10,667 nt of DNA. Source: a virus (taxonomy: Duplodnaviria; Heunggongvirae; Uroviricota; Caudoviricetes). Below are positions 1-10,667 of this stretch, one piece after another (the stretch's first letter is position 1; every line of letters begins with the position of its first letter). The position numbers and the translations under genes were made by a program. Under the pieces are notes generated by a model that saw only the letters and a program-made list of their open reading frames with translations, did not search any database and was not told the DNA's origin. The stretch spans positions 1-10,667 of the IMG/VR virus record IMGVR_UViG_2778261646_000002; one strand, written 5' to 3'.

Positions 1-1
1 T

Positions 2-112
2 CTGAGACAACATCTGGCAAGGCTGGGACGGAAGTCACTGTCGTTCTCAAAATCGGTGGAGCTGCATGACAAGGTCATCGGGCATTATCTGAACATAAAA
101 CACTATCAGTAA
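2..112 (+). CDS. 3' end of an upstream ORF that runs off the window start (partial); identity not determined
   Basis: Frame 2 is open from position 2 to a TAA at 110-112 (translation ...[36 protein letters not shown]). No start is visible in the window. It could be the real end of the neighbouring gene or an out-of-frame remnant of the ybhJ 5' region. Confidence 0.3.
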
Positions 113-180
113 GTTGGAGTCATTACCCCTCTCACGATATTACCTTTGTTGGTATTGTACAGACCGCTAAAGCGTCCGGT

Positions 181-2243: not shown

Positions 2244-2277
2244 CCCGATGGTTCAGACTATCGGGTTTTCTTTTTTT
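2244..2277 (+). terminator. Candidate rho-independent terminator for ybhJ
   Basis: Stem CCCGAT (2244-2249) pairs with ATCGGG (2260-2265), with further partial pairing inside, followed by TTTTCTTTTTTT (2266-2277). The T-tract overlaps the ybhC stop codon. Confidence 0.6.
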
Positions 2278-3559
2278 ACTTCTTCGCCTCTGCAACCACT
2301 TTGCTACCCACGCCGCGGTTATTGTATTCCCACATGCGGTTGTAGTTAGTGTCATTCAGATTGCGCTGTACTTCGTCGTTATCATCAACGTTGCCAGTAT
2401 TACCCGCAAACGGACGATTGGAAATCACCGCATCGGCCCACGGTTTCGCCGTGTTAAAACCTTCGTTGATGGCGCTATCACGGATCACTACCTGACCGTT
2501 GGTATTGGCATCAACATCCAGCGAGCGGCCCAGTTGCGCCACGCCATCACCGGAAGCATTGAAACGGCTGTTTACGGCGAGGAAACCGTAATAGATGTTA
2601 GACAGCGTAGCCGGTGCAAACACATACGCTTCTTGCTGAGTACGTGAGTTCACCACGCGGAATTCGGTATTATCGAACACCACTGCGCCGCGACCAGAAA
2701 CGATATCCACATCCCCTTCAATATAGCTGTTGGTCACCAGCGTACGCGGCTGACGGTTGGTTTCCAGACGGTTCTGCACACCACTGTTGGTGACAAAGAA
2801 GGTATTCTGACGACCGAGAATGTTGACGTTATTGATCTGCACTTTGTCGCCATCAGTACGCAGTGCCACCGCCGGATGGTTACCCGCATCTACGCTATCA
2901 CCCAGCGTGTTTTCGATGGTCAGGTTTTGCAGTTGCAGGCCATTGTTTTGTGACCAGAAGACCGCAGAGCAGAGAACACCGATACTGTCGCTGCGTTTAC
3001 TCTGGCAGCTATCGTACATATACCACGCCGGTTTACCTGGCATATATTTGCCGCGCGGGTTGACGTCGTGACGCCAGTCGGCAGGGCTCATGCCACCATC
3101 AAGGGAAAGCCCAATCTTCACATCAATCGGTTTTTCACCTGTACCGTACAGAGTAATTCCACCCGGAGCGGCAGGGACATACACCGTTCCCTGATACTCA
3201 CCAGGCATCACGGCAATATACTGGCGCTTGTTGGTACGCTTGATAATTGCCGCATCTACCGCCGCCTGAATCGTGGTATGCGTTACACCTTGAGTACCCG
3301 CCGGGCCGACAACAAAGTCAGGTTGCGCAGGCAAGGTAATTGGGGAAGGATTCCACGCTGCAGCACCTGGCGTCAGGGACGCAAAATAGTGTTGAGCATC
3401 GAAATTCTGCGCTTCTTTTGCCGACAGAATCGGGCGAGAAGAGGTACCAGGCGCGGTTTGATCAGAAGGACGTTGATCGGGCGGTGTTGAGCTACAGGCG
3501 GTCAGCGTCACGCCAAAAGCCAATGCCAGCGCCAGACGGGAAACTGAAAATGTGTTCAC
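2276..3559 (-). CDS. ybhC: Pectinesterase-family outer-membrane lipoprotein / putative acyl-CoA thioesterase YbhC, 427 aa
   Basis: 427-aa ORF with an N-terminal signal peptide and lipobox (LALALAFGVTLTAC). GGAG Shine-Dalgarno upstream of the ATG at 3559. The gene lies directly beside the lambda att core, as expected for ybhC at the att-lambda locus. Confidence 0.9.
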   Translation of the reverse strand: MNTFSVSRLALALAFGVTLTACSSTPPDQRPSDQTAPGTSSRPILSAKEAQNFDAQHYFASLTPGAAAWNPSPITLPAQPDFVVGPAGTQGVTHTTIQAAVDAAIIKRTNKRQYIAVMPGEYQGTVYVPAAPGGITLYGTGEKPIDVKIGLSLDGGMSPADWRHDVNPRGKYMPGKPAWYMYDSCQSKRSDSIGVLCSAVFWSQNNGLQLQNLTIENTLGDSVDAGNHPAVALRTDGDKVQINNVNILGRQNTFFVTNSGVQNRLETNRQPRTLVTNSYIEGDVDIVSGRGAVVFDNTEFRVVNSRTQQEAYVFAPATLSNIYYGFLAVNSRFNASGDGVAQLGRSLDVDANTNGQVVIRDSAINEGFNTAKPWADAVISNRPFAGNTGNVDDNDEVQRNLNDTNYNRMWEYNNRGVGSKVVAEAKK

Positions 3560-3605
3560 AGGTTGCTCCGGGCTATGAAATAGAAAAATGAATCCGTTGA
3601 AGCCT

Positions 3606-3620
3606 GCTTTTTTATACTAA
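3606..3620. other. Phage lambda att core (15-bp common overlap sequence) at the attL prophage-host junction
   Basis: Exact GCTTTTTTATACTAA. The left flank (CCGTTGAAGCCTGC) matches the bacterial B arm and the right flank (GTTGGCATTATAAAAAAGCATTGCTTATCAATTTG...) matches the lambda P' arm, recalled from the lambda attP sequence. Confidence 0.92.
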
Positions 3621-3700
3621 GTTGGCATTATAAAAAAGCATTGCTTATCAATTTGTTGCAACGAACAGGTCACTATCAGTCAAAATAAAATCATTATTTG
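3621..3700. promoter_or_regulatory. Lambda P' arm with IHF H' site and Int arm-type binding sites P'1-P'3
   Basis: IHF-consensus-like TATCAATTTGTTG at about 3645-3657. Three tandem arm-type-like elements follow: AGGTCACTAT, CAGTCAAAAT and AAATCATTAT at about 3667-3697, matching the lambda arm-site consensus (C/A)AGTCACTAT. Confidence 0.8.
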
Positions 3701-4764
3701 ATTTCAATTTTGTCCCACTCCCTGCCTCTGTCATCACGATACTGTGATGCCATGGTGTCCGACTTATGCCCGAGAAGATGTTGAGCAAACTTATCGCTTA
3801 TCTGCTTCTCATAGAGTCTTGCAGACAAACTGCGCAACTCGTGAAAGGTAGGCGGATCCCCTTCGAAGGAAAGACCTGATGCTTTTCGTGCGCGCATAAA
3901 ATACCTTGATACTGTGCCGGATGAAAGCGGTTCACGACGAGTAGATGCAATTATGGTTTCTCCGCCAAGAATCTCTTTGCATTTATCAAGTGTTTCCTTC
4001 ATTGATATCCCGAGAGCATCAACATGCAATGCTGTTGGGATGGCAATTTTTACGCCTGTTTTGCTTTGCTCGACATAAAGATATCCATCTACGATATCAG
4101 ACCACTTCATTTCGCATAAATCACCAACTCGCTGCCCGGTAACAACAGCCAGTTCCATTGCAAGTCTAAGCCAACATGGTGATGATTCTGCTGCTTGATA
4201 AATTTTCAGGTATTCGTCAGCCGTAAGTCTTGATCTCCTTACCTCTGATTTTGCTGCGCGAGTGGCAGCGACCGGGTTTGTTGTTATATGGCCTTCAGCT
4301 ATTGCCTCTCGGAATGCATCGCTCAGTGTTGATCTGATTAACTTGGCTGACGCCGCCTTGCCCTCGTCTATGTATCCATTGAGCATTGCTGCAATTTCTT
4401 TTGTGGTGATGTCTTCAAGTGGAGCATCAGTCAGACCCCTCCTTATTGCTTTAATTTTGCTCATGTAATTTATGAGTGTCTTCTGCTTGATTCCTCTGTT
4501 GGCGAGAATTTTTTCGTAGCGATCAAGCCATGAATGTAACGTAACAGAATTATCACTGTTGATTCTCGCTGTCAGAGGCTTGTGTTTGTGTCCTGAAAAT
4601 AACTCAATGTTGGCCTGTATAGCCTCAGTGATTGCTATCCTCCTGTCTCGGCCTAATCCAAACTCTTTACCCGTCCTTGGGTCCCTGTAGCAGTAATATC
4701 CATTGTTTCTTATATAAAGATTAGGGGGTAAATCCCGGCGCTCATGACTTCGCCTTCTTCCCAT
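3694..4764 (-). CDS. int: Lambda integrase (tyrosine site-specific recombinase), 356 aa
   Basis: Translation matches lambda Int as recalled, from MGRRRSHERRDLPPNLYIRNNGYYCYRDPRTGKEFGLG to RDDRGREWDKIEIK. Tyrosine-recombinase catalytic region present (HELRSLSARLY ... LLGHKSDTMASQY). The stop lies about 74 bp from the att core, as in lambda. Confidence 0.97.
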   Translation of the reverse strand: MGRRRSHERRDLPPNLYIRNNGYYCYRDPRTGKEFGLGRDRRIAITEAIQANIELFSGHKHKPLTARINSDNSVTLHSWLDRYEKILANRGIKQKTLINYMSKIKAIRRGLTDAPLEDITTKEIAAMLNGYIDEGKAASAKLIRSTLSDAFREAIAEGHITTNPVAATRAAKSEVRRSRLTADEYLKIYQAAESSPCWLRLAMELAVVTGQRVGDLCEMKWSDIVDGYLYVEQSKTGVKIAIPTALHVDALGISMKETLDKCKEILGGETIIASTRREPLSSGTVSRYFMRARKASGLSFEGDPPTFHELRSLSARLYEKQISDKFAQHLLGHKSDTMASQYRDDRGREWDKIEIK

Positions 4765-4960
4765 TTCTGATCCTCTTCAAAAGGCTACCTGTTACTGGTC
4801 GATTTAAGTCAACCTTTACCGCTGATTCGTGGAACAGATACTCTCTTCCATCCTTAACCGGAGGAGGGAATATCCTGCATTCGCGCACCCATCGACGAAC
4901 TGTTTCAAGGCTTCTTGGGCGTCGCTGGCGTGCGTTCCACTCCTGAAGTGTCAAGTACAT
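4742..4960 (-). CDS. xis: Lambda excisionase Xis, 72 aa
   Basis: Translation from the internal Met, MYLTLQEWNARQRRPRSLETVRRWVRECRIFPPPVKDGREYLFHESAVKVDLNRPVTGSLLKRIRNGKKAKS, matches lambda Xis. The 3' end overlaps the int start by 23 nt, as in lambda. The longer 102-aa ORF to 5050 is an upstream in-frame extension. Confidence 0.93.
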   Translation of the reverse strand: MYLTLQEWNARQRRPRSLETVRRWVRECRIFPPPVKDGREYLFHESAVKVDLNRPVTGSLLKRIRNGKKAKS

Positions 4961-4986
4961 CGCAAAGTCTCCGCAATTACACGCAA

Positions 4987-5008
4987 GAAAAAGCCGCATT
5001 GATGCGGC
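4987..5008 (-). terminator. Candidate intrinsic terminator on the minus strand just upstream of xis
   Basis: Stem GCCGCA (4993-4998), loop TTGA, stem TGCGGC (5003-5008). An A-run at 4988-4992 on the plus strand gives a U-tract after the hairpin on the minus strand. Confidence 0.4.
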
Positions 5009-5077: not shown

Positions 5078-5338
5078 TTAGTCCTTGCGTAGCTCGCTGA
5101 TTCTTCTGTAAGTCTCTGGTGCTTTGTTTCCGTGTATCTTCATTTCAAACTTCAACAGAGCAACGAGAGAATCCCATTCGTTGAGGATGCCTTTGAATGC
5201 CGGAACGCGCTTTGCAACCTTGTCGAATGAATCTCTGATTTCTGGAATCTGCTCAACAAGTGCAACGCATCGCCGGAAGTCTGCTGCGTCATGTGGAGCG
5301 CCGAAGTGATGACCATAGATATTTTTTTCAGTCCACAT
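5078..5338 (-). CDS. Hypothetical phage protein, 86 aa
   Basis: ORF with protein-like composition (MWTEKNIYGHHFGAPHDAADFRRCVALVEQIPEIRD...). No obvious Shine-Dalgarno before ATG 5338. An overlapping alternative ORF in another frame (start ATG 5421 with a GGAG Shine-Dalgarno, end 5152) competes for this region. Confidence 0.45.
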   Translation of the reverse strand: MWTEKNIYGHHFGAPHDAADFRRCVALVEQIPEIRDSFDKVAKRVPAFKGILNEWDSLVALLKFEMKIHGNKAPETYRRISELRKD

Positions 5339-5447
5339 GCGATTGAGGCAAGAGTTGCGCTACTGATGCCGACATCGCCAGTTGATTGCCATTTCAAAAC
5401 CTTCATAGCCAAATCTGACATTTCTTGTCTCCAATAAAAAACCGCCA

Positions 5448-5615
5448 TCAGGCGTCTTGGTGTTCTTTCAGTTCTTCAATTCGAATATTGGTTACGTCTG
5501 CATGCGCTATCTGCGCCCATATCATCCAGTGGTTATAGCAGTCGTTGATGTCCTCTGCTTCGATAACCCTGTCGAATGGCTCTCCATTCCATTCACCTGT
5601 GACTCGGAAGTGCAT
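5448..5615 (-). CDS. Hypothetical small phage protein, 55 aa
   Basis: ATG at 5615-5613 preceded by GGAG 8 nt upstream. Translation MHFRVTGEWNGEPFDRVIEAEDINDCYNHWMIWAQIAHADVTNIRIEELKEHQDA. Shorter than the 60-aa cutoff of the ORF track. Confidence 0.45.
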   Translation of the reverse strand: MHFRVTGEWNGEPFDRVIEAEDINDCYNHWMIWAQIAHADVTNIRIEELKEHQDA

Positions 5616-5626
5616 TTATCATCTCC

Positions 5627-5653
5627 ATAAAACAAAACTCGCCGTAGCGAGTT
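5627..5653 (-). terminator. Candidate intrinsic terminator on the minus strand between the DUF551 gene and the 55-aa ORF
   Basis: Stem AACTCGC (5636-5642), loop CGTA, stem GCGAGTT (5647-5653). On the minus strand it is followed by TTTTGTTTTAT. Confidence 0.45.
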
Positions 5654-5715
5654 CAGATAAAAGAAATCCCCGCGAGTGCGAGGATTGTTATTCACCTTTG
5701 ACGGCAAGTTGCAGG

Positions 5716-6243
5716 TTAGCCACGGTTAACCTCCTGCGGCGGTTCTGGCAGCGGCATCCAGTGGGTTACGTCATCCAAGATATTTCCTGATAAATATGTG
5801 AAAGCTCTATATTTTTTGTAATCAATTGGACTCATTACCCAGTTCCAATATGCTGCCACTATTTGACCTTGACTAAATGCCAGTAACATTTTGGTGTCGT
5901 CCGGCATTCGCTCACTACAGCTTATCCAACCATCCGGAGTTACCGGCACTGGCTGAGCGGTATAAAGCGGTGTTATATCTGCCCGAAAATTACATGCTTT
6001 ATGCAGCCGCACCCCCCGTTCGACTTCTGCTTTGTCAGGATACATACCAGTGAACGTGTTATATTCACGGTCAATTTGCGTGAAGGTTACCTTCCACGCC
6101 ACCGGCTCTGCCTCAAGCGATGCCAGAGCAATTCGTGCCAGTTCTTCCGCTTCTTCTGCTGGCAGTACAACGTTGCTACCAGGTCTGTATGTTTCGCGCC
6201 ACTGCTTGATTGTCAGCAGTCGCTCTTTGGTAATAGTGGTCAT
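5716..6243 (-). CDS. DUF551-domain prophage protein, 175 aa
   Basis: C-terminal region WISCSERMPDD...VAAYWNW...VTHWMPLPEPP fits the DUF551 pattern common in enterobacterial prophage early regions. The ATG overlaps the upstream stop (ATGA) and has an AAGGA Shine-Dalgarno. Confidence 0.8.
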   Translation of the reverse strand: MTTITKERLLTIKQWRETYRPGSNVVLPAEEAEELARIALASLEAEPVAWKVTFTQIDREYNTFTGMYPDKAEVERGVRLHKACNFRADITPLYTAQPVPVTPDGWISCSERMPDDTKMLLAFSQGQIVAAYWNWVMSPIDYKKYRAFTYLSGNILDDVTHWMPLPEPPQEVNRG

Positions 6244-6755
6244 GCCGCGTTTCCTTCTTTCTTATTAACAATTACACCGTCATATATTTCATTAAGGTGC
6301 CCTCTCAACTCCATGCGCCTTAATGCAGATAACATGTAATCGCATTCAACCTGCTTATTTCCAGTAAATGGCTTATCGTCAGGATTACCCCAACAGCAAT
6401 TACCCTTGGGCCATCCATGTACTTTCCGTACTCTTCCGTTAACAACGTGAAGTAATCCCCAGCCGGGAGGTAAATCCTCAACTGAAATAATTTCCGGCTC
6501 ACTAATAAAGAATCGCCAGTCGCCCATGCCAAGTGAGGGATTTTTACGGAAACGCTTTTTTCTATCTGCCAACAAGTCAGCACGAGAACACTTCGCCTCT
6601 ATCAGGCATGATGCTGAATTTCTGAATCCCATAGCATCTGGCTGTTCTCCGGTACTGGTTACAGCTATAAAGCGGTCATGAAAACAGACCTTGAACCCGT
6701 TGCGCTTAAGGAACTTGTGCGCAATCTGACAGAGTTCGCTGTGTGTTAACGCCAT
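6240..6755 (-). CDS. Hypothetical protein with a PD-(D/E)XK nuclease-like motif, 171 aa from MALTHSELCQ
   Basis: Preferred start is ATG 6755, with AAGGAG 6 nt upstream and 1 nt after the stop of the Ea22-like gene. Contains GEQPD ... LIEAKCS, a PD-x(n)-E-x-K arrangement, and a Cys-containing C-terminal half (GNCCWGNPDD, VECDY). Functional call is motif-based only. Confidence 0.65.
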   Translation of the reverse strand: MALTHSELCQIAHKFLKRNGFKVCFHDRFIAVTSTGEQPDAMGFRNSASCLIEAKCSRADLLADRKKRFRKNPSLGMGDWRFFISEPEIISVEDLPPGWGLLHVVNGRVRKVHGWPKGNCCWGNPDDKPFTGNKQVECDYMLSALRRMELRGHLNEIYDGVIVNKKEGNAA

Positions 6756-6756
6756 A

Positions 6757-7350
6757 TCACTCTCCTTTGATGCGAATGCCAGCGGCACGGGAATCATTCC
6801 ATCGCTTTACTTCTTCACGAATTACGTCAATGCATTCTTTCGAATCCATTAGGTAATCTTCATCAAAAAGACGTTCCTGTTCGTTTTCTATCGCAACAAT
6901 GATTGCTTCAACTAACTTTTGTACCTGAGAACCACTTTCTAACTCTGCTATGCGCTTACTCCCATCCGAGATAACGCCCTCGTAATACTCACGCTGCTCG
7001 TTGAGTTTTGATTTTGCCAACTCCAGTTGTTTTGTTAGTTCCGCAATACGGCAAACATCGTTGATACGCGTTTCCTCTAATGCGTTGATCTCATCCAACA
7101 ATGCCAGCGCAACATTTGGATTAAAAGCAGCAATAAATTCAGCGTTTGCATAAGCCTGAACATCTGTTTCAACCAGGCAGTTAACATGACATTCTGCAAT
7201 CACGCCACCGGGTTCTCCTTTCCATTTTTGGCAAACAAAAACTCCTGTTAAATTGCCGTGCTGGTTAACAGATGTATGCCCTACGATGTAGCTCCCTTTC
7301 GTTGCCTTTTCTGCCGCATCACGCAGTGCCTGATAATTAATTTCGCTCAC
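6757..7350 (-). CDS. Ead/Ea22-like phage protein, 197 aa (GTG start)
   Basis: N-terminus MSEINYQALRDAAEKATKG resembles the Ea22-like family of lambdoid prophages, with a coiled-coil-like central region. GTG start at 7350 with GGAGGA Shine-Dalgarno; GTGA overlap with the upstream stop. Confidence 0.7.
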   Translation of the reverse strand: MSEINYQALRDAAEKATKGSYIVGHTSVNQHGNLTGVFVCQKWKGEPGGVIAECHVNCLVETDVQAYANAEFIAAFNPNVALALLDEINALEETRINDVCRIAELTKQLELAKSKLNEQREYYEGVISDGSKRIAELESGSQVQKLVEAIIVAIENEQERLFDEDYLMDSKECIDVIREEVKRWNDSRAAGIRIKGE

Positions 7351-7571
7351 TCTTCATCCTCCAAGTCGGCAACGGCGTCCATCACATCAGAACCGCGAAT
7401 AACCTCAAAAGCACGGCAGGCCATTTGAAATACCAGTTGCTCTTGCGGGTGAGGAGACTCCCAATATTTGAAGCCTGGGCGATGCGTGTACCCCATCATT
7501 GAATAAAAATCACCAGCAAGCTTAATCGCGGCATCGACAAGCTCTCTGTTAGTCATTCTTTTTCCGCTCAC
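7347..7571 (-). CDS. Hypothetical small phage protein, 74 aa (GTG start)
   Basis: GTG at 7571 with AGGAGG 7 nt upstream, overlapping the upstream stop (GTGA). Acidic C-terminus (ADLEDEE). Confidence 0.6.
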   Translation of the reverse strand: MSGKRMTNRELVDAAIKLAGDFYSMMGYTHRPGFKYWESPHPQEQLVFQMACRAFEVIRGSDVMDAVADLEDEE

Positions 7572-7987
7572 TGGTTGCCTCCTTTGCGAAGCTGGGCGGC
7601 TAACTCATCACATATGTGCGTCAAAGAACAAAGTTTGATTGATGGATGTTCGCGCATCATCTCTACTCCCTGCGCCCGCACTTCAGACAGGAAAGCATCG
7701 GTGGCTGGCATATTTCCTGTTGCCTTCATTGCCTCCAAAATAACCAGAACGCCATCTCGCCCAACCACCTCAGCGATAACCTCGGTGTTGTCGCCAACAA
7801 CATCGCAGAATGCCTGAACTGCCTTACGAGCCAGCGCACTCTCCGCCGCCAGCGCCGCGCACTTGGCCTCCGCTTCAGCAAATTTACGCACCAGATATTC
7901 AGCGTTTGTTTCGTTAACCTTTAAATCGCTTGGGATGCATTTACCTTTCAGGAATCCATCCATCTCAATTAGTGACATTTGTTTCAT
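7568..7987 (-). CDS. Hypothetical phage protein, 139 aa
   Basis: ATG 7987 overlaps the upstream stop (ATGA) with a GGAG Shine-Dalgarno. Ala-rich, predicted helical ([26 protein letters not shown]). No family recognised. Confidence 0.65.
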
Positions 7988-8148
7988 TTCTTCCCACTCC
8001 GCAACATCGCATTCAGATATTTGTTTTGATTCACTGACGGAAAAGAATTTCTCTTTAGCAATTCCTCTCTCGATGGCATTGGCTTTACGCGCTGGCGAAT
8101 AATCATTTCTGCCGGAAGAATGCCGGGGTTGTATGCAAGTCCTCTCAT
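7984..8148 (-). CDS. Hypothetical small phage protein, 54 aa (MRGLAYNPG...); possible longer forms start at 8166 or 8184
   Basis: Within the 101-aa ORF 7984..8289, the ATG at 8148 is the only start with a Shine-Dalgarno (GAGGAA) and lies downstream of the stop of the preceding gene at 8159-8161. Longer forms would overlap that gene. Confidence 0.45.
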
Positions 8149-8158
8149 GGTAAATTCC

Positions 8159-8455
8159 TCAGTCATTACTGATAGCGCCATAGCGTGATCGATAATTACG
8201 CAGCCGCGGGTCGATATATTCAGGGAAGTGGGTATATGTGGCTTTGCGGAATGGTCGGATTGATGTTTCGTTTGTTCGGTCCTTCTCATTTTTTAACGCG
8301 AGTTGTATATCGCGTCGGTACATCCGTTCTGCTTTTGTTTCTGGTGGCAGATCGATAAACGTGTCGAAAATGTTTTTGATATTTTCCAGCACCTCCGCCT
8401 TGGAGCTACCGGAGCAATTGCGCGGGTCATCCGCACCATACAGAGGCGCTGGCAT
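8159..8455 (-). CDS. Hypothetical phage protein, 98 aa
   Basis: ATG 8455 with an AAGG Shine-Dalgarno-like sequence. Charged, protein-like composition. Follows the DUF669-like gene after a 23-bp gap. Confidence 0.5.
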
Positions 8456-8478
8456 AATGGGAGCCTTATTTTCAGTAA

Positions 8479-9066
8479 TCAGAAAGCAGGGTAATCGTTC
8501 TTGCTGTAACCATAATCATCTGCATGATTCTGGCTTACGTTTTTAGAGCGATTGTCTTTATCTTTGAGATTGGCAACCATGTTGGCGATAGTTTCTGGTT
8601 GCTTGCCTTCTGCCTTTTCTTTAAGGGTTTGACCTGTTTGTGCAATAAACGGGATGCGTATTTCCATCTGGTAGTTGTCTGCGCCAGTCTTTTTGTTTGT
8701 GGTTAATACTTTCTGGAGCACTAACCCGATTTTCTTTCCATGAAATTCAGGTGCAACAAATTTACTGGCGGAAACCATATGCTGCGTTAATTGTCCAATC
8801 CCGGCACACCCCATCATGGCGTGAACGACATTTGCGCCAAATTTGTTTTCCGTTCCGTCATTTTTCTGAACACAGACGCTAAGATATTGGATTTTACGTC
8901 CGTCGTCGGATTCTCCAGAAAACTCAATAAATTTGGCTCCTTTTTCTGATTGCTTTAGTTCTGCTTCAGTAATGGTAATGATATGGGCGCCAGTTTCGTT
9001 AATAAAACCACCTTGCCCTGCGGTCAGTGCTGCTTCTTCGTTATAAGTAAAAATCACGTTGCTCAT
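8479..9066 (-). CDS. DUF669-like protein, putative ssDNA-binding partner of Sak4, 195 aa
   Basis: Start ATG 9066 overlaps the Sak4 stop (ATGA) with an AAGGA Shine-Dalgarno. Gene position and size fit the protein that commonly follows Sak4-type ATPases. The C-terminus ...DDYGYSKNDYPAF resembles the aromatic tail of SSB proteins. Family assignment is from memory. Confidence 0.65.
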   Translation of the reverse strand: MSNVIFTYNEEAALTAGQGGFINETGAHIITITEAELKQSEKGAKFIEFSGESDDGRKIQYLSVCVQKNDGTENKFGANVVHAMMGCAGIGQLTQHMVSASKFVAPEFHGKKIGLVLQKVLTTNKKTGADNYQMEIRIPFIAQTGQTLKEKAEGKQPETIANMVANLKDKDNRSKNVSQNHADDYGYSKNDYPAF

Positions 9067-9743
9067 GCGGCGTTTTCCTTAATTTGATGAACATTATTGA
9101 TGCCGTAGTAATCACAAACAGTGGCATCGACGAAAGAGAGATCGTTATCAATCTCATTGGAATCAAACATTCCCATTGGGGATTTGACAGTGTCTGCACC
9201 GTTGTTTTTCGTGGTGAAAAAGAACTGGTCATCGCGGGTAAGAGTGCGAAGAACTATAGTAAACATGCCTTCGACAGTGATTTTCTCGTCCAGCATTTTG
9301 CCGATAGTTTTCATTTTCACGCGCCCCATAGGGGTTTCTTCGGTATGTGCAAGAAAATAGACTCTCAGGTCATCAGGTGCATCCTGTGCAGCCTTAATCA
9401 CCTCCCATGCGTGGCGGCCTATCTCAGTAAATTTATCAAACGATTTTTCTTCTGAGCGGCGCATAAACTCATTGCTCATCACATACTGGAAGTCATCAAC
9501 AATAACGATTCTTTTTCCGTATTCGTGAGCACGCTTAATTACAGCAACTATTACGTCCCATTTGTCAGTGGTAACTACGGTTCCTTTTTTTGCTCTGGCA
9601 TCCCATGCAAGCCAGTCTTTTGATTTAAATGGTAGCGGCTTGCCTATTGGTTTTATAAGTATTGCTTCCTCTGGATTGATATTTCTCATGCTGGTTGATT
9701 TTCCGGTGCCAGATTCACCGAGTATTAATGTCGCAGTTCCCAT
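9063..9743 (-). CDS. Sak4-type RecA-like ATPase / single-strand annealing protein, 226 aa
   Basis: N-terminal Walker A GESGTGKST and Walker B RIVIVDD. Size of about 226 aa is typical of the core-only RecA-like Sak4 proteins of lambdoid and lactococcal phages. GAGG Shine-Dalgarno before ATG 9743. Confidence 0.85.
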   Translation of the reverse strand: MGTATLILGESGTGKSTSMRNINPEEAILIKPIGKPLPFKSKDWLAWDARAKKGTVVTTDKWDVIVAVIKRAHEYGKRIVIVDDFQYVMSNEFMRRSEEKSFDKFTEIGRHAWEVIKAAQDAPDDLRVYFLAHTEETPMGRVKMKTIGKMLDEKITVEGMFTIVLRTLTRDDQFFFTTKNNGADTVKSPMGMFDSNEIDNDLSFVDATVCDYYGINNVHQIKENAA

Positions 9744-9751
9744 AATTTGCC

Positions 9752-9940
9752 TCAGAATGGTAATTCGGATGGGCAGGAAAGAAATTCGCGCTCATTCATG
9801 CGCTCTCTTTGCGCCTGCCATAAACAAAGTTGTTTCTTTGATTTATCTCCCGCTTTACGCCAGTAACGAGCCTCAGCAATGTGATATTCTCTTTTTAATC
9901 GACTTAACTCTGGAGTTTTCGCCAGTTCTACCGGAATCAT
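9752..9940 (-). CDS. Hypothetical small phage protein, 62 aa
   Basis: ATG at 9940 overlaps the kil stop (ATGA) and is preceded by GGAGGT. The upstream in-frame ATG at 9952 lies inside kil and lacks a Shine-Dalgarno. Confidence 0.5.
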   Translation of the reverse strand: MIPVELAKTPELSRLKREYHIAEARYWRKAGDKSKKQLCLWQAQRERMNEREFLSCPSELPF

Positions 9941-10050
9941 TTTGACCTCCATTTTCTGTAGGCTTCTACGGCTTCACGAAACATCTTTTCATCGCCAATA
10001 AAAGTGGCGATAGTGAATTTAGTCTGGATAGCCATAAGTGTTTTATCCAT
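9937..10050 (-). CDS. kil: Kil-like host cell-division inhibitor, 37 aa
   Basis: MDKTLMAIQTKFTIATFIGDEKMFREAVEAYRKW closely matches the N-terminus of lambda Kil as recalled. AGGAG Shine-Dalgarno present. Overlaps the cIII 3' end by 8 nt. Confidence 0.75.
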   Translation of the reverse strand: MDKTLMAIQTKFTIATFIGDEKMFREAVEAYRKWRSK

Positions 10051-10183
10051 TTTTGGGAACTCCTGGCTGATTAAGTATGTCGATAAGGCGTTTCCATCCA
10101 TCACGTAATTTACGTGTGATTCGTTCAAGTAAAGATTCGGAAGGGCAGCCAGCAACAGGCCACCCTGCAATGGCATATTGCAT
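10043..10183 (-). CDS. cIII: CIII-like protein (FtsH inhibitor that stabilises CII), 46 aa
   Basis: MQYAIAGWPVAGCPSESLLERITRKLRDGWKRLIDILNQPGVPKNG matches lambda CIII as recalled, with a shorter C-terminus. AAGGAG Shine-Dalgarno upstream of ATG 10183. The longer 80-aa form in the ORF track is an upstream extension. Confidence 0.85.
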   Translation of the reverse strand: MQYAIAGWPVAGCPSESLLERITRKLRDGWKRLIDILNQPGVPKNG

Positions 10184-10493: not shown

Positions 10494-10667
10494 TGAACCG
10501 CCCCGGGTTTCCTGGAGAGTGTTTTATCTGTGAACTCAGGCTGCCAGATCATCGTTTCCGATGGAAGCATAATAAGCTTTTTCTGCTTCTGCCGGAGGAG
10601 TATGGCCCAGCCTTTCCAGCAATCGTCGATTGTTATACCAGTCCACCCACGTGAGTGTGGCCAGTTC
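10494..10667 (-). mobile_element. IS629-like (IS3-family) insertion sequence, right end (partial; continues beyond the window)
   Basis: Plus strand from 10494 reads TGAACCGCCCCGGGTTTCCTGGAGAGTGTTTTATCTGTGAACTCA, the reverse complement of the IS629 right terminus as recalled, with the TG...CA ends typical of IS3-family inverted repeats. Followed by the transposase 3' end. Confidence 0.85.
10536..10667 (-). CDS. IS3-family transposase (OrfB), C-terminal 43 codons (partial)
   Basis: Minus-strand translation ...ELATLTWVDWYNNRRLLERLGHTPPAEAEKAYYASIGNDDLAA* carries the conserved W-x-x-WYN-x-x-R-x-x-x-x-LG C-terminal signature of IS3-family transposases. Stop codon at 10536-10538. Confidence 0.85.
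   Translation of the reverse strand, partial: ELATLTWVDWYNNRRLLERLGHTPPAEAEKAYYASIGNDDLAA

Follow-up and report, generated by a model that had tools for sequence, protein, structure and literature searches.

The window, a stretch of 10,667 nt, matches the genome of E. coli O7:K1 strain CE10 except for a 1-bp indel. Within it, the host gene ybhC adjoins a junction that the first-pass annotation had read as an attL, formed at the classical lambda attachment site and consisting of a 15-bp core, a bacterial B-arm flank and a lambda P′ arm with IHF and arm-type sites. The features of this junction are as follows.

2276-3559, minus strand: ybhC, host gene on the gal side of attB (427-aa ORF; CE10 and MG1655 annotation; Pfam Pectinesterase)
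3560-3605, plus strand: bacterial B-arm flank from ybhC to the core, equal to the left arm of MG1655 attB
3604-3612, plus strand: B core-type Int site CTGCTTTTT, read from the sequence and the same in K-12 attB
3606-3620, plus strand: 15-bp common core GCTTTTTTATACTAA, exact and unique in the window
3611-3617: 7-bp overlap TTTATAC inside the core
3616-3624, minus strand: C′ core-type Int site, bottom strand CAACTTAGT, 0 mismatches to lambda
3646-3658, plus strand: H′ IHF site consensus TATCAATTTGTTG, 0 mismatches to lambda, fitting WATCAANNNNTTR
3666-3676, plus strand: arm-type Int site P′1, 0 mismatches to lambda
3677-3686, plus strand: arm-type Int site P′2, 0 mismatches to lambda
3687-3697, plus strand: arm-type Int site P′3, 0 mismatches to lambda, overlapping the int stop codon

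No site-specific recombination system is understood better than that of lambda att. The N-terminal domain of lambda Int binds arm-type sites (here P′1-P′3), its core-binding and catalytic domains bind core-type sites (here B and C′; we take 3604-3612 to be the B site by the definition established in the lambda literature), IHF bends the DNA at H′ and thereby bridges the two kinds of site, and strand exchange takes place at the overlap TTTATAC. The core lies 46 bp away from the ybhC start codon (3559). When two mismatches were allowed, GCTTTTTTATACTAA had no other match in the window, where shuffle statistics gave a chance expectation of 0.03, and alignment showed it to be identical to both the lambda core and the K-12 core. 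To its left, the B arm showed no difference from MG1655 attB across ~70 aligned bases. To its right, positions 3606-3933 aligned to lambda (J02459) with 0 mismatches, from the core to +320. All in all, the element boundary proposed at 3606-3620 was exact, the bacterial flank was confirmed by its identity to the MG1655 left arm, and the B-O-P′ order with ybhC adjoining identified the classical site. The P′ arm, a failed alignment of which had been named as grounds for giving up the reading, was a perfect match over 320 bp and at every site. The same ybhC-core-P′ junction was present in 1,920 of 5,426 complete E. coli genomes (about a third, ~35%).

Beyond the P′ arm, the window continues with the following features.

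3694-4764, minus strand: int, full-length gene of a lambda-type tyrosine integrase of 356 aa (lambda alignment, Pfam, PDB match)
4742-4960, minus strand: xis, full-length gene for a 72-aa excisionase that overlaps the start of int (lambda/434 alignment, Pfam)
4973-4986, minus strand: box of cII type (TTGCGTGTAATTGC) in the pI promoter, immediately upstream of the xis start codon ATG (motif read from the sequence)
4993-5008, minus strand: hairpin and T-run terminator upstream of xis (terminator scan; t′-I is annotated at the equivalent position of M60848, phage 434)
5078-10183, minus strand: early-left (pL-operon type) genes of the prophage remnant (CE10 annotation and Pfam)
10494-10667, minus strand: IS3-family element, its left end in the window, marking an internal prophage deletion

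The expectation that int and then xis follow the junction held, with both genes being full-length, lambda-type ORFs. Int was identical to lambda Int at 352 of 356 residues (98.9%), carried all the catalytic residues (R212, K235, H308, R311, H333 and Y342 in the lambda alignment), and matched PDB entries 5J0N and 1Z1G over its full length (E = 1e-235). Its Pfam domains were Arm-DNA-bind_1 (PF09003), PF22022/PF02899 and Phage_integrase (PF00589). This combination of arm-DNA-binding, core-binding and catalytic domains with the R-K-H-R-H-Y set places it in the heterobivalent, arm-binding lambda Int subfamily. Residues N99, S282, G283, R287 and E319, which reportedly determine core-site specificity according to published lambda/HK022 specificity-swap work, were all lambda-type rather than HK022-type. 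These residues and the lambda-type core ruled out an HK022-type or other Int specificity. Xis (Pfam Exc, E = 4e-41) was identical to lambda Xis at 71 of 72 residues (98.6%) and to phage 434 Xis at all 72, and the att-int-xis module as a whole was 98-100% identical to lambda.

Positions 4920-4992 showed 0 mismatches to lambda, so that the pI/cII box is identical to that of lambda; we assume for it the role of a cII-dependent pI promoter established in lambda. A promoter scan around int/xis returned one weak match, which is below the number obtained in shuffled sequence. Lambda homology ended at about position 4993 in the alignment. The genes that follow at 5078-10183 comprise homologues of 434 ORF114 and ORF55, both matching phage 434, together with DUF551, an ea22-like pseudogene, DUF2737, P22 Abc2, an AAA ATPase, kil and cIII.

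The first-pass annotation had made its reading depend on a matching core at the far end of the element, and we found one in CE10, accompanied by P and B′ arms. This second exact core lies on the same strand at 19899-19913 of the CE10 locus (L001), 16.3 kb off and beside ybhB, in the order P arm, core, B′ arm, ybhB and in direct orientation to attL. In the P arm of this attR the P1, H1, P2, X1 and C sites were unchanged from lambda, and H2 and the sib/tI hairpin were present. Overall, 164 of 194 positions of the P arm were identical to lambda, and most of the differences also occur in 434 and HK97, which are functional phages. Five changes with respect to lambda fell in the X2/Fis region, one of them absent from 434 and HK97. 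Identity of the P arm was 95.5% with phages PDP110P1 and P2, and 88-90% with 434, HK97 and HK106. The first base of the B′ core-type site differed from K-12. In-silico excision of the CE10 element rebuilt an attB that was 100% identical to unoccupied sites in other strains, and this rebuilt attB was found empty (at least 80% coverage) in 3,489 of the 5,426 genomes. The attP side released by the same operation was phage-like, with a P′ arm equal to that of lambda.

We then asked what kind of element lies in the 16.3 kb between attL and attR of CE10. Its right half (tailspike, neuO, arc/ant and a truncated gp16) matched CUS-3, phiv205-1 and 720R6. neuO carries 18 perfect 5′ heptanucleotide repeats (L001 18592-18719), and the endosialidase tailspike gene is a frameshifted pseudogene. 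The element thus shows the P22-like architecture, the endosialidase tailspike and the neuO repeat tract of a CUS-3-like K1 prophage. The IS3-family element is 1,310 bp long, has 25-nt terminal inverted repeats (L001 10495-10519 and 11780-11804) and may resemble IS629 (1,310 bp). No target duplication was found at its ends, where the flanking triplets TAG and TCT differ. On one side of it lies the region upstream of cIII, on the other a 5′-truncated gene for a DNA transfer protein of the P22 gene-16 type; in comparison with 720R6, it stands in for ~23 kb comprising N/immunity, replication, lysis and head genes. Accordingly, the CE10 annotation lists nothing between attL and attR for immunity (cI/cro or c2), N/pL, cII, O/P, Q, replication, lysis, terminase, portal or coat, and the element is not an intact prophage, lambdoid or P22-like, that could be induced. 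From a 16.3-kb remnant without N/pL, cI and cII and without genes for replication, lysis and head, no release of phage after induction is expected. The same remnant is present in strain N32, with further IS insertions, one of them inside int. The decayed CUS-3-like phage of CE10, located between pgl and bioA with neuO intact and functional, has been described before (PMC9659370, PNAS 2022). The same work reported that neuO of CE10 gives protection against K1 phages, that CUS-3-like K1 prophages tend to decay, and that lambda attB is a second, rarer insertion site of those carrying neuO (PMC9659370). The attL is an ordinary finding and already known.

Comparison with related systems showed where each part of the element has its counterpart. 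The ybhC/ybhB site, the 15-bp core, the B arm and the P′ arm (C′, H′, P′1-P′3) are identical to lambda attL in K-12 lysogens, and the att-int-xis gene order and the pI/cII box are also the same. In contrast to lambda, the attR has a 434/HK97-like P-arm variant and a B′ site one base off K-12, the element is defective, and beyond xis it is unrelated to lambda. The modules of 434 and HK97, which share lambda-att specificity, are close in several respects: Xis is that of 434, HK97 Int is the closest phage Int (99.4%), ORF114 and ORF55 beside xis match 434, and the P-arm polymorphisms are largely common. However, both phages are siphoviruses, have complete genomes and lack the S89N and P112T changes of the Int described here, whereas this module sits on a P22-like podovirus remnant. 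With CUS-3, the P22-like neuO K1 prophage of E. coli RS218, and with phiv205-1, the element shares the tailspike, neuO, the ant/arc immI region and gene 16 at 97.7-98.5% nucleotide identity, the heptanucleotide tract of neuO being present in CUS-3 as well. The match to both phages ends before the P arm (query position 7939 of 8163). CUS-3 integrates at argW next to dsdC by means of another integrase and att site (PMC9659370), unlike the CE10 element, which lies at lambda attB between ybhC and ybhB, uses the lambda module and has lost ~23 kb. The Lederbergvirus vB_EcoP-720R6 (ON470605), extracted with host flank, is an intact P22-like prophage of ~38 kb at the same attB; one of its ends carries lambda-type int/xis, the other a tailspike of K1 type together with the P-arm variant of CE10 (98.7%). 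Both ends match the CE10 element at 97-99%, namely 97.5% for the int-xis-ORF114-ORF55 end and 98-99% for the tailspike-P arm-attR end. 720R6 differs in having other early-left genes, in lacking a neuO cassette (an 843-bp stretch from tailspike to P arm is absent) and in being complete instead of IS-deleted. It is the best model of the undeleted CE10 ancestor.

Taken together, the junction at 3606-3620 is, with a probability of roughly 93%, a true attL generated by a lambda-module phage at the ybhC/ybhB attB, the element being P22-like and CUS-3-like and since decayed by IS activity. No observation spoke against the attL assignment. On its sequence, the element is a P22-like (Lederbergvirus), CUS-3-like K1 phage with a lambda-type integration module, and not lambda itself. 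The proposal that a lambda-type Int carried out the integration is supported at the level of sequence, with attL, attR, int and xis all being consistent with it. In this scenario, a temperate phage with lambda-type attP, int and xis would have integrated into E. coli attB between ybhC and ybhB. Later on, an IS3-family element replaced ~23 kb, from the N/immunity region to gene 16, and the tailspike was frameshifted, while int, xis, attL and attR stayed sequence-intact. The remnant may then have been kept as the carrier of neuO, the phase-variable capsule O-acetyltransferase gene. Because pL/N and cII, the normal drivers of int/xis expression, have been lost, we infer that the remnant is now essentially locked in place. 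Excision in lambda is the recombination of attL with attR by Int, Xis, IHF and Fis. Since the int and xis genes, pI and both att sites are intact, excision could still occur at a low level or with a helper, that is, if a lambda-att phage gave Int and Xis in trans.

Other explanations of the junction were weighed against this one. A chance occurrence of the core or an assembly artefact, in favour of which there is nothing but the AT-richness of the core, can be dismissed: a match with up to two mismatches is expected 0.03 times per window, the flanks are perfect on both sides (320 bp of identity to lambda on one, K-12 on the other), and the junction recurs in 1,920 independent complete genomes. 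An attL belonging to an intact, inducible lambda or lambda-like prophage would account for the 98-100% identity of the att-int-xis module, but it is hardly conceivable for an element in which lambda homology is gone past position ~4993, attL and attR are just 16.3 kb apart, the N, cI, cro, cII, O/P, Q, lysis, terminase, portal and coat genes are missing, an IS3-family element and a frameshifted tailspike gene lie inside, and the structural remnants are P22/CUS-3-like. An intact lambda prophage was ruled out by the CE10 annotation, the end of lambda homology and the comparison with intact 720R6. It is also improbable that attL and attR stem from different integrations, as they would if attB had once been occupied by two prophages in tandem, the left one lambdoid and the right one CUS-3-like, and an IS-mediated deletion had fused them into a chimera. 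Lambda is well known to form tandem lysogens at attB, the IS without target-site duplication implies that a deletion or IS-IS recombination certainly happened, and the early-left genes best match Stx-converting lambdoid phages whereas the right half matches CUS-3-type phages. Such mosaic best matches are nevertheless usual in the early-left regions of lambdoid and P22-like phages. Moreover, 720R6, an intact single prophage at the same site, has both CE10-type ends (97.5% left, 98-99% right), so that a single ancestor suffices. Even if the chimera were real, 3606-3620 would be a genuine attL.

Regarding the present state of the remnant, a different view is that it still excises autonomously through its own Int and Xis, and that attL x attR recombination at an appreciable rate switches neuO carriage across the population. 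Expression might then come from pI, from read-through from the IS or upstream genes, or from cII of another resident lambdoid prophage. The intact int and xis ORFs, a pI/cII box identical to lambda, the intact attL and attR, and an IS transposase gene pointing in the same direction as the int operon are compatible with this view. We consider it unlikely, however, since cII, N and pL are gone from the element, a terminator hairpin lies directly upstream of xis, and a 16-kb circle released by excision would lack the functions for replication and packaging. Furthermore, N32 keeps the remnant although an IS has destroyed int, which fits vertical inheritance with no need for Int.

In terms of biological relevance, the junction is of value chiefly for annotation, as it fixes where a remnant prophage begins on its left side in a strain from neonatal meningitis. 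It also shows that the element carrying the functional neuO of CE10 is P22-like and entered attB by means of the lambda module, unlike the prototype CUS-3 (argW). The locus illustrates clearly how modules are exchanged (lambda int/att joined to the backbone of a podovirus) and how prophages decay through IS activity, neither of which is new. As a more speculative idea, which we regard as a long shot, the intact attL/attR and int/xis might, rather than being leftovers, be maintained to keep the neuO cassette mobilisable, as a helper-dependent “contingency island”. If so, a lambda-att phage of the 434, HK97 or lambda type could, on superinfection, supply Int and Xis in trans and excise the remnant, or alternatively could integrate at attL/attR and gain neuO by aberrant or homologous exchange, and the capsule-modification gene would pass from one phage backbone to another and between the insertion sites argW and attB.

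A minor observation concerns the Int allele itself. The substitutions S89N and P112T lie in the core-binding domain and are not found in lambda, 434, HK97 or 720R6. A search for the exact allele in isolated phages found none, with HK97 Int being the closest; the exact allele was, in turn, present on 59 public contigs.

When K-12 attB and lambda attP were aligned with the window and with the element's far end, the classical pattern of a left prophage junction (attL, B-O-P′) emerged. A single exact copy of the common lambda core (15 bp, GCTTTTTTATACTAA) lies on the plus strand at 3606-3620, precisely where the first-pass annotation had put it, with ybhC on its left and 46 bp between the 5′ side of that gene and the core. 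No further copy was found in the window even when two mismatches were allowed (chance expectation 0.03), and a chance match of the core was excluded. The sequence to the left of this core agrees base for base with the B arm of K-12 attB, and that to the right with the P′ arm of lambda attP. An ungapped comparison with the lambda genome record J02459 gave 0 mismatches across 3606-3933, a stretch starting with the core and reaching +320, so that the P′-arm sites are all those of lambda. The junction and the genes behind it comprise the following features.

2276-3559, minus strand: ybhC, 427-aa ORF
3604-3612: B core-type site, CTGCTTTTT
3611-3617: 7-bp overlap TTTATAC, the place of strand exchange
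3616-3624: C′ core-type site, identical to lambda
3646-3658: H′ IHF consensus, identical to lambda
3666-3676: P′1 arm-type site, identical to lambda
3677-3686: P′2 arm-type site, identical to lambda
3687-3697: P′3 arm-type site, identical to lambda
3694-4764, minus strand: int, 356-aa ORF
4742-4960, minus strand: xis, 72-aa ORF
4986-4973, minus strand: cII-type box of pI, TTGCGTGTAATTGC, inside a stretch identical to lambda
5008-4993: hairpin and T-run terminator, directly upstream of the cII-type box

Int and xis follow the junction, as the annotation had described. Compared with its lambda counterpart, Int has four substitutions (S89N, P112T, H164P and I248V), the first two of them unusual, and retains R212, K235, H308, R311, H333 and Y342, together with the lambda-type N99, S282, G283, R287 and E319, the five residues known to separate lambda from HK022 core specificity. 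Pfam recognized the lambda arm-DNA-binding, central/SAM-like and catalytic domains, and a match running from one end to the other was obtained with 5J0N and 1Z1G, structures of full-length lambda Int. Its 90%-identity cluster contains 4,324 distinct sequences; the exact allele was found on 59 contigs. Xis is identical to that of phage 434 and shares 71/72 residues with lambda Xis. Lambda homology stops at ∼4993. In the phage 434 record the terminator at the equivalent place is annotated as t′I, and the two genes after it are counterparts of 434 ORF114 and ORF55.

The window is identical to E. coli O7:K1 CE10 (NC_017646.1, 820956-831623) except for one base in a T-run at 5329 (within 5078-5448), which has 7 T in the window versus 8 in RefSeq CE10. 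The shorter run frameshifts the ORF114 homologue, which is split in the window into ORFs of 86 and 98 aa and is intact, at 114 aa, in NC_017646.1; the difference is either one of sequencing version or a real homopolymer slip. In CE10 only ∼16 kb separate ybhC from ybhB and bioA on its right, and a second exact core is found on the same strand as the first, at 19899-19913 of L001, the CE10 locus covering the window and the far end of the element. The ∼190 bp before this core align to the lambda P arm (164/194), and the B′ arm and then ybhB come after it, forming the right junction (attR, P-O-B′) 16.3 kb from attL. These results confirm the first-pass observation of a lambda-site attL beside ybhC and support its interpretation as lambda-type integration at the classical site. 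The annotation had named the lack of a matching core at the other end as its main ground for rejection, and such a core is present.

The B′ arm (L001 19914-19922) equals that of K-12 save one base (CTTTAGCG versus CTTGAGCG), which alters the first bottom-strand consensus base of the B′ core-type site (ACTAACTTT in CE10, ACTAACTTG in K-12). Because other strains have this allele, at 100% identity, in attB sites that are unoccupied, the variant is a host polymorphism. When the host sequences on either side of the element were fused in silico, the result was an attB, B′ variant included, that is 100% identical in unoccupied genomes. In the P arm, P1, the H1 IHF consensus, P2, X1 and C are unchanged from lambda and the sib/tI hairpin is kept; H2 differs at a single, unconstrained consensus position, and seven changes fall in the X1.5 and X2/Fis stretch. 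Nearly all of these changes recur in HK97 and/or phage 434, both users of the lambda att site, and the P arm of CE10 is 87-96% identical to those of phages in the collection. By sequence, the differences therefore appear to be natural polymorphism of working attP sites rather than decay. All sequence determinants of lambda attL and attR are present in the CE10 element.

Counted as present at a coverage of at least 80%, the 175-bp ybhC-core-P′ junction occurs in 1,920 of 5,426 complete E. coli genomes, and an empty attB in 3,489. Lambda att sites are textbook knowledge, and the feature is of an already known kind, in an already described element. A decayed phage copy between pgl and bioA has been reported in CE10 (PMC9659370, PNAS 2022), whose neuO is intact, functional and protective against K1 phage (PMC9659370); the att sites of the element are not spelled out in that paper. 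What is added here is the lambda integration module on an IS-deleted, CUS-3-like remnant of P22 type that has retained functional neuO.

The left part of the element carries int, xis and early-left genes, with kil and cIII last. The cIII side is followed by an IS3-family element, a 5′-truncated P22 gene-16-type DNA transfer protein and then, in order, the arc/ant immI region, a frameshifted tailspike and an acyltransferase.

8159-8455: abc2, P22-type anti-RecBCD gene
10494-10667 (L001 10495-11804): IS3-family element, 1,310 bp with 25-nt terminal inverted repeats
L001 18589-19365, outside the window, 14 kb to the right: neuO, K1 capsule O-acetyltransferase gene

The right half is 97.7-98.5% identical to the P22-like K1 phages phiv205-1 and CUS-3, by match to which the tailspike is a K1 endosialidase and the acyltransferase neuO. 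The neuO cassette (843 bp, L001 18550-19392) lies between tailspike and P arm; 18 perfect TCAAGAC repeats directly follow the start codon, in frame, since neuO is annotated as a full-length ORF. The element is a CUS-3-like P22-type remnant that carries a lambda integration module. An intact lambda prophage was excluded, the element being neither lambda nor intact (16.3 kb, IS3-family element, truncated gene-16 type).

No target-site duplication was found at the IS3-family element, whose flanking triplets are TAG and TCT, so that it marks a deletion or IS-IS recombination rather than simple insertion. On its left it abuts the ea10 region upstream of cIII, which it links to the truncated gene-16-type gene, and it marks a ∼23-kb internal prophage deletion. 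Gone, therefore, are N, pL, cI, cro, cII, replication, Q and lysis, as well as terminase, portal, coat and most ejection genes.

The missing duplication, together with the mosaic best matches of the two halves, would also fit two tandem prophages fused by IS-mediated deletion, which is possible. Such a fusion is unnecessary given Escherichia phage vB_EcoP-720R6, a ∼38-kb intact Lederbergvirus prophage deposited with host flank at the same attB. One of its ends carries a lambda-type int-xis-ORF114-ORF55 (97.5% identical to CE10), and the other the K1 tailspike, the same P-arm variant and attR (98-99%); unlike the CE10 element, it has no 843-bp neuO cassette. As both ends match CE10, the simplest history is that one P22-like ancestor carrying a lambda integration module lost ∼23 kb. 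Even a tandem fusion would leave the nature of the 3606-3620 junction unchanged.

The element would have integrated by Int/IHF-mediated attP × attB exchange across the TTTATAC overlap, and the remnant is now probably effectively fixed. Int and xis are intact; the element lacks the regulatory genes that normally drive them (N with pL; cII for pI), and a terminator lies upstream of xis. Low-level or helper-driven excision may be possible, and autonomous excision is possible but unsupported; any excision would presumably yield a non-replicating, non-packageable 16-kb circle. N32, a further cerebrospinal-fluid isolate, shares with CE10 the remnant, its IS-bounded deletion and the IS1 in ybhJ, and has additional IS insertions (NZ_CM165895.1; 14694-17077 and 27802-32687 of its locus). 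There, int is split by an IS3-family copy, the endosialidase tailspike is broken by IS1, IS600 and IS3 copies, and neuO is reduced to an ORF of 336 nt. The shared remnant and added insertions support vertical inheritance with continuing decay, and the split int shows that the element can be retained without Int.

The right end of the IS1 in ybhJ (window 1-126, CE10 820956-821081) truncates that gene; gene order in CE10 and N32 is ybhD-IS1-′ybhJ-ybhC, and ybhH, ybhI and 5′ ybhJ of K-12 are missing. Further decay was seen in the early-left region (window 6577-7350), where, by the CE10 annotation, a hypothetical gene is frameshifted (L001 6578-6756) and an ead/Ea22-like gene has lost its C-terminal part (L001 6938-7351). 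A ClpP-like protease gene, an unusual passenger for a P22-type immI, lies directly downstream of the Arc-family repressor gene in the immI-like region (L001 13363-14147), which also matches phiv205-1. Beside abc2, where erf or bet is the usual occupant, 8479-9743 encodes a 226-aa AAA_24/AAA_22 ATPase and a 195-aa protein with no Pfam match, a pair that may be a Sak4-like recombinase module.
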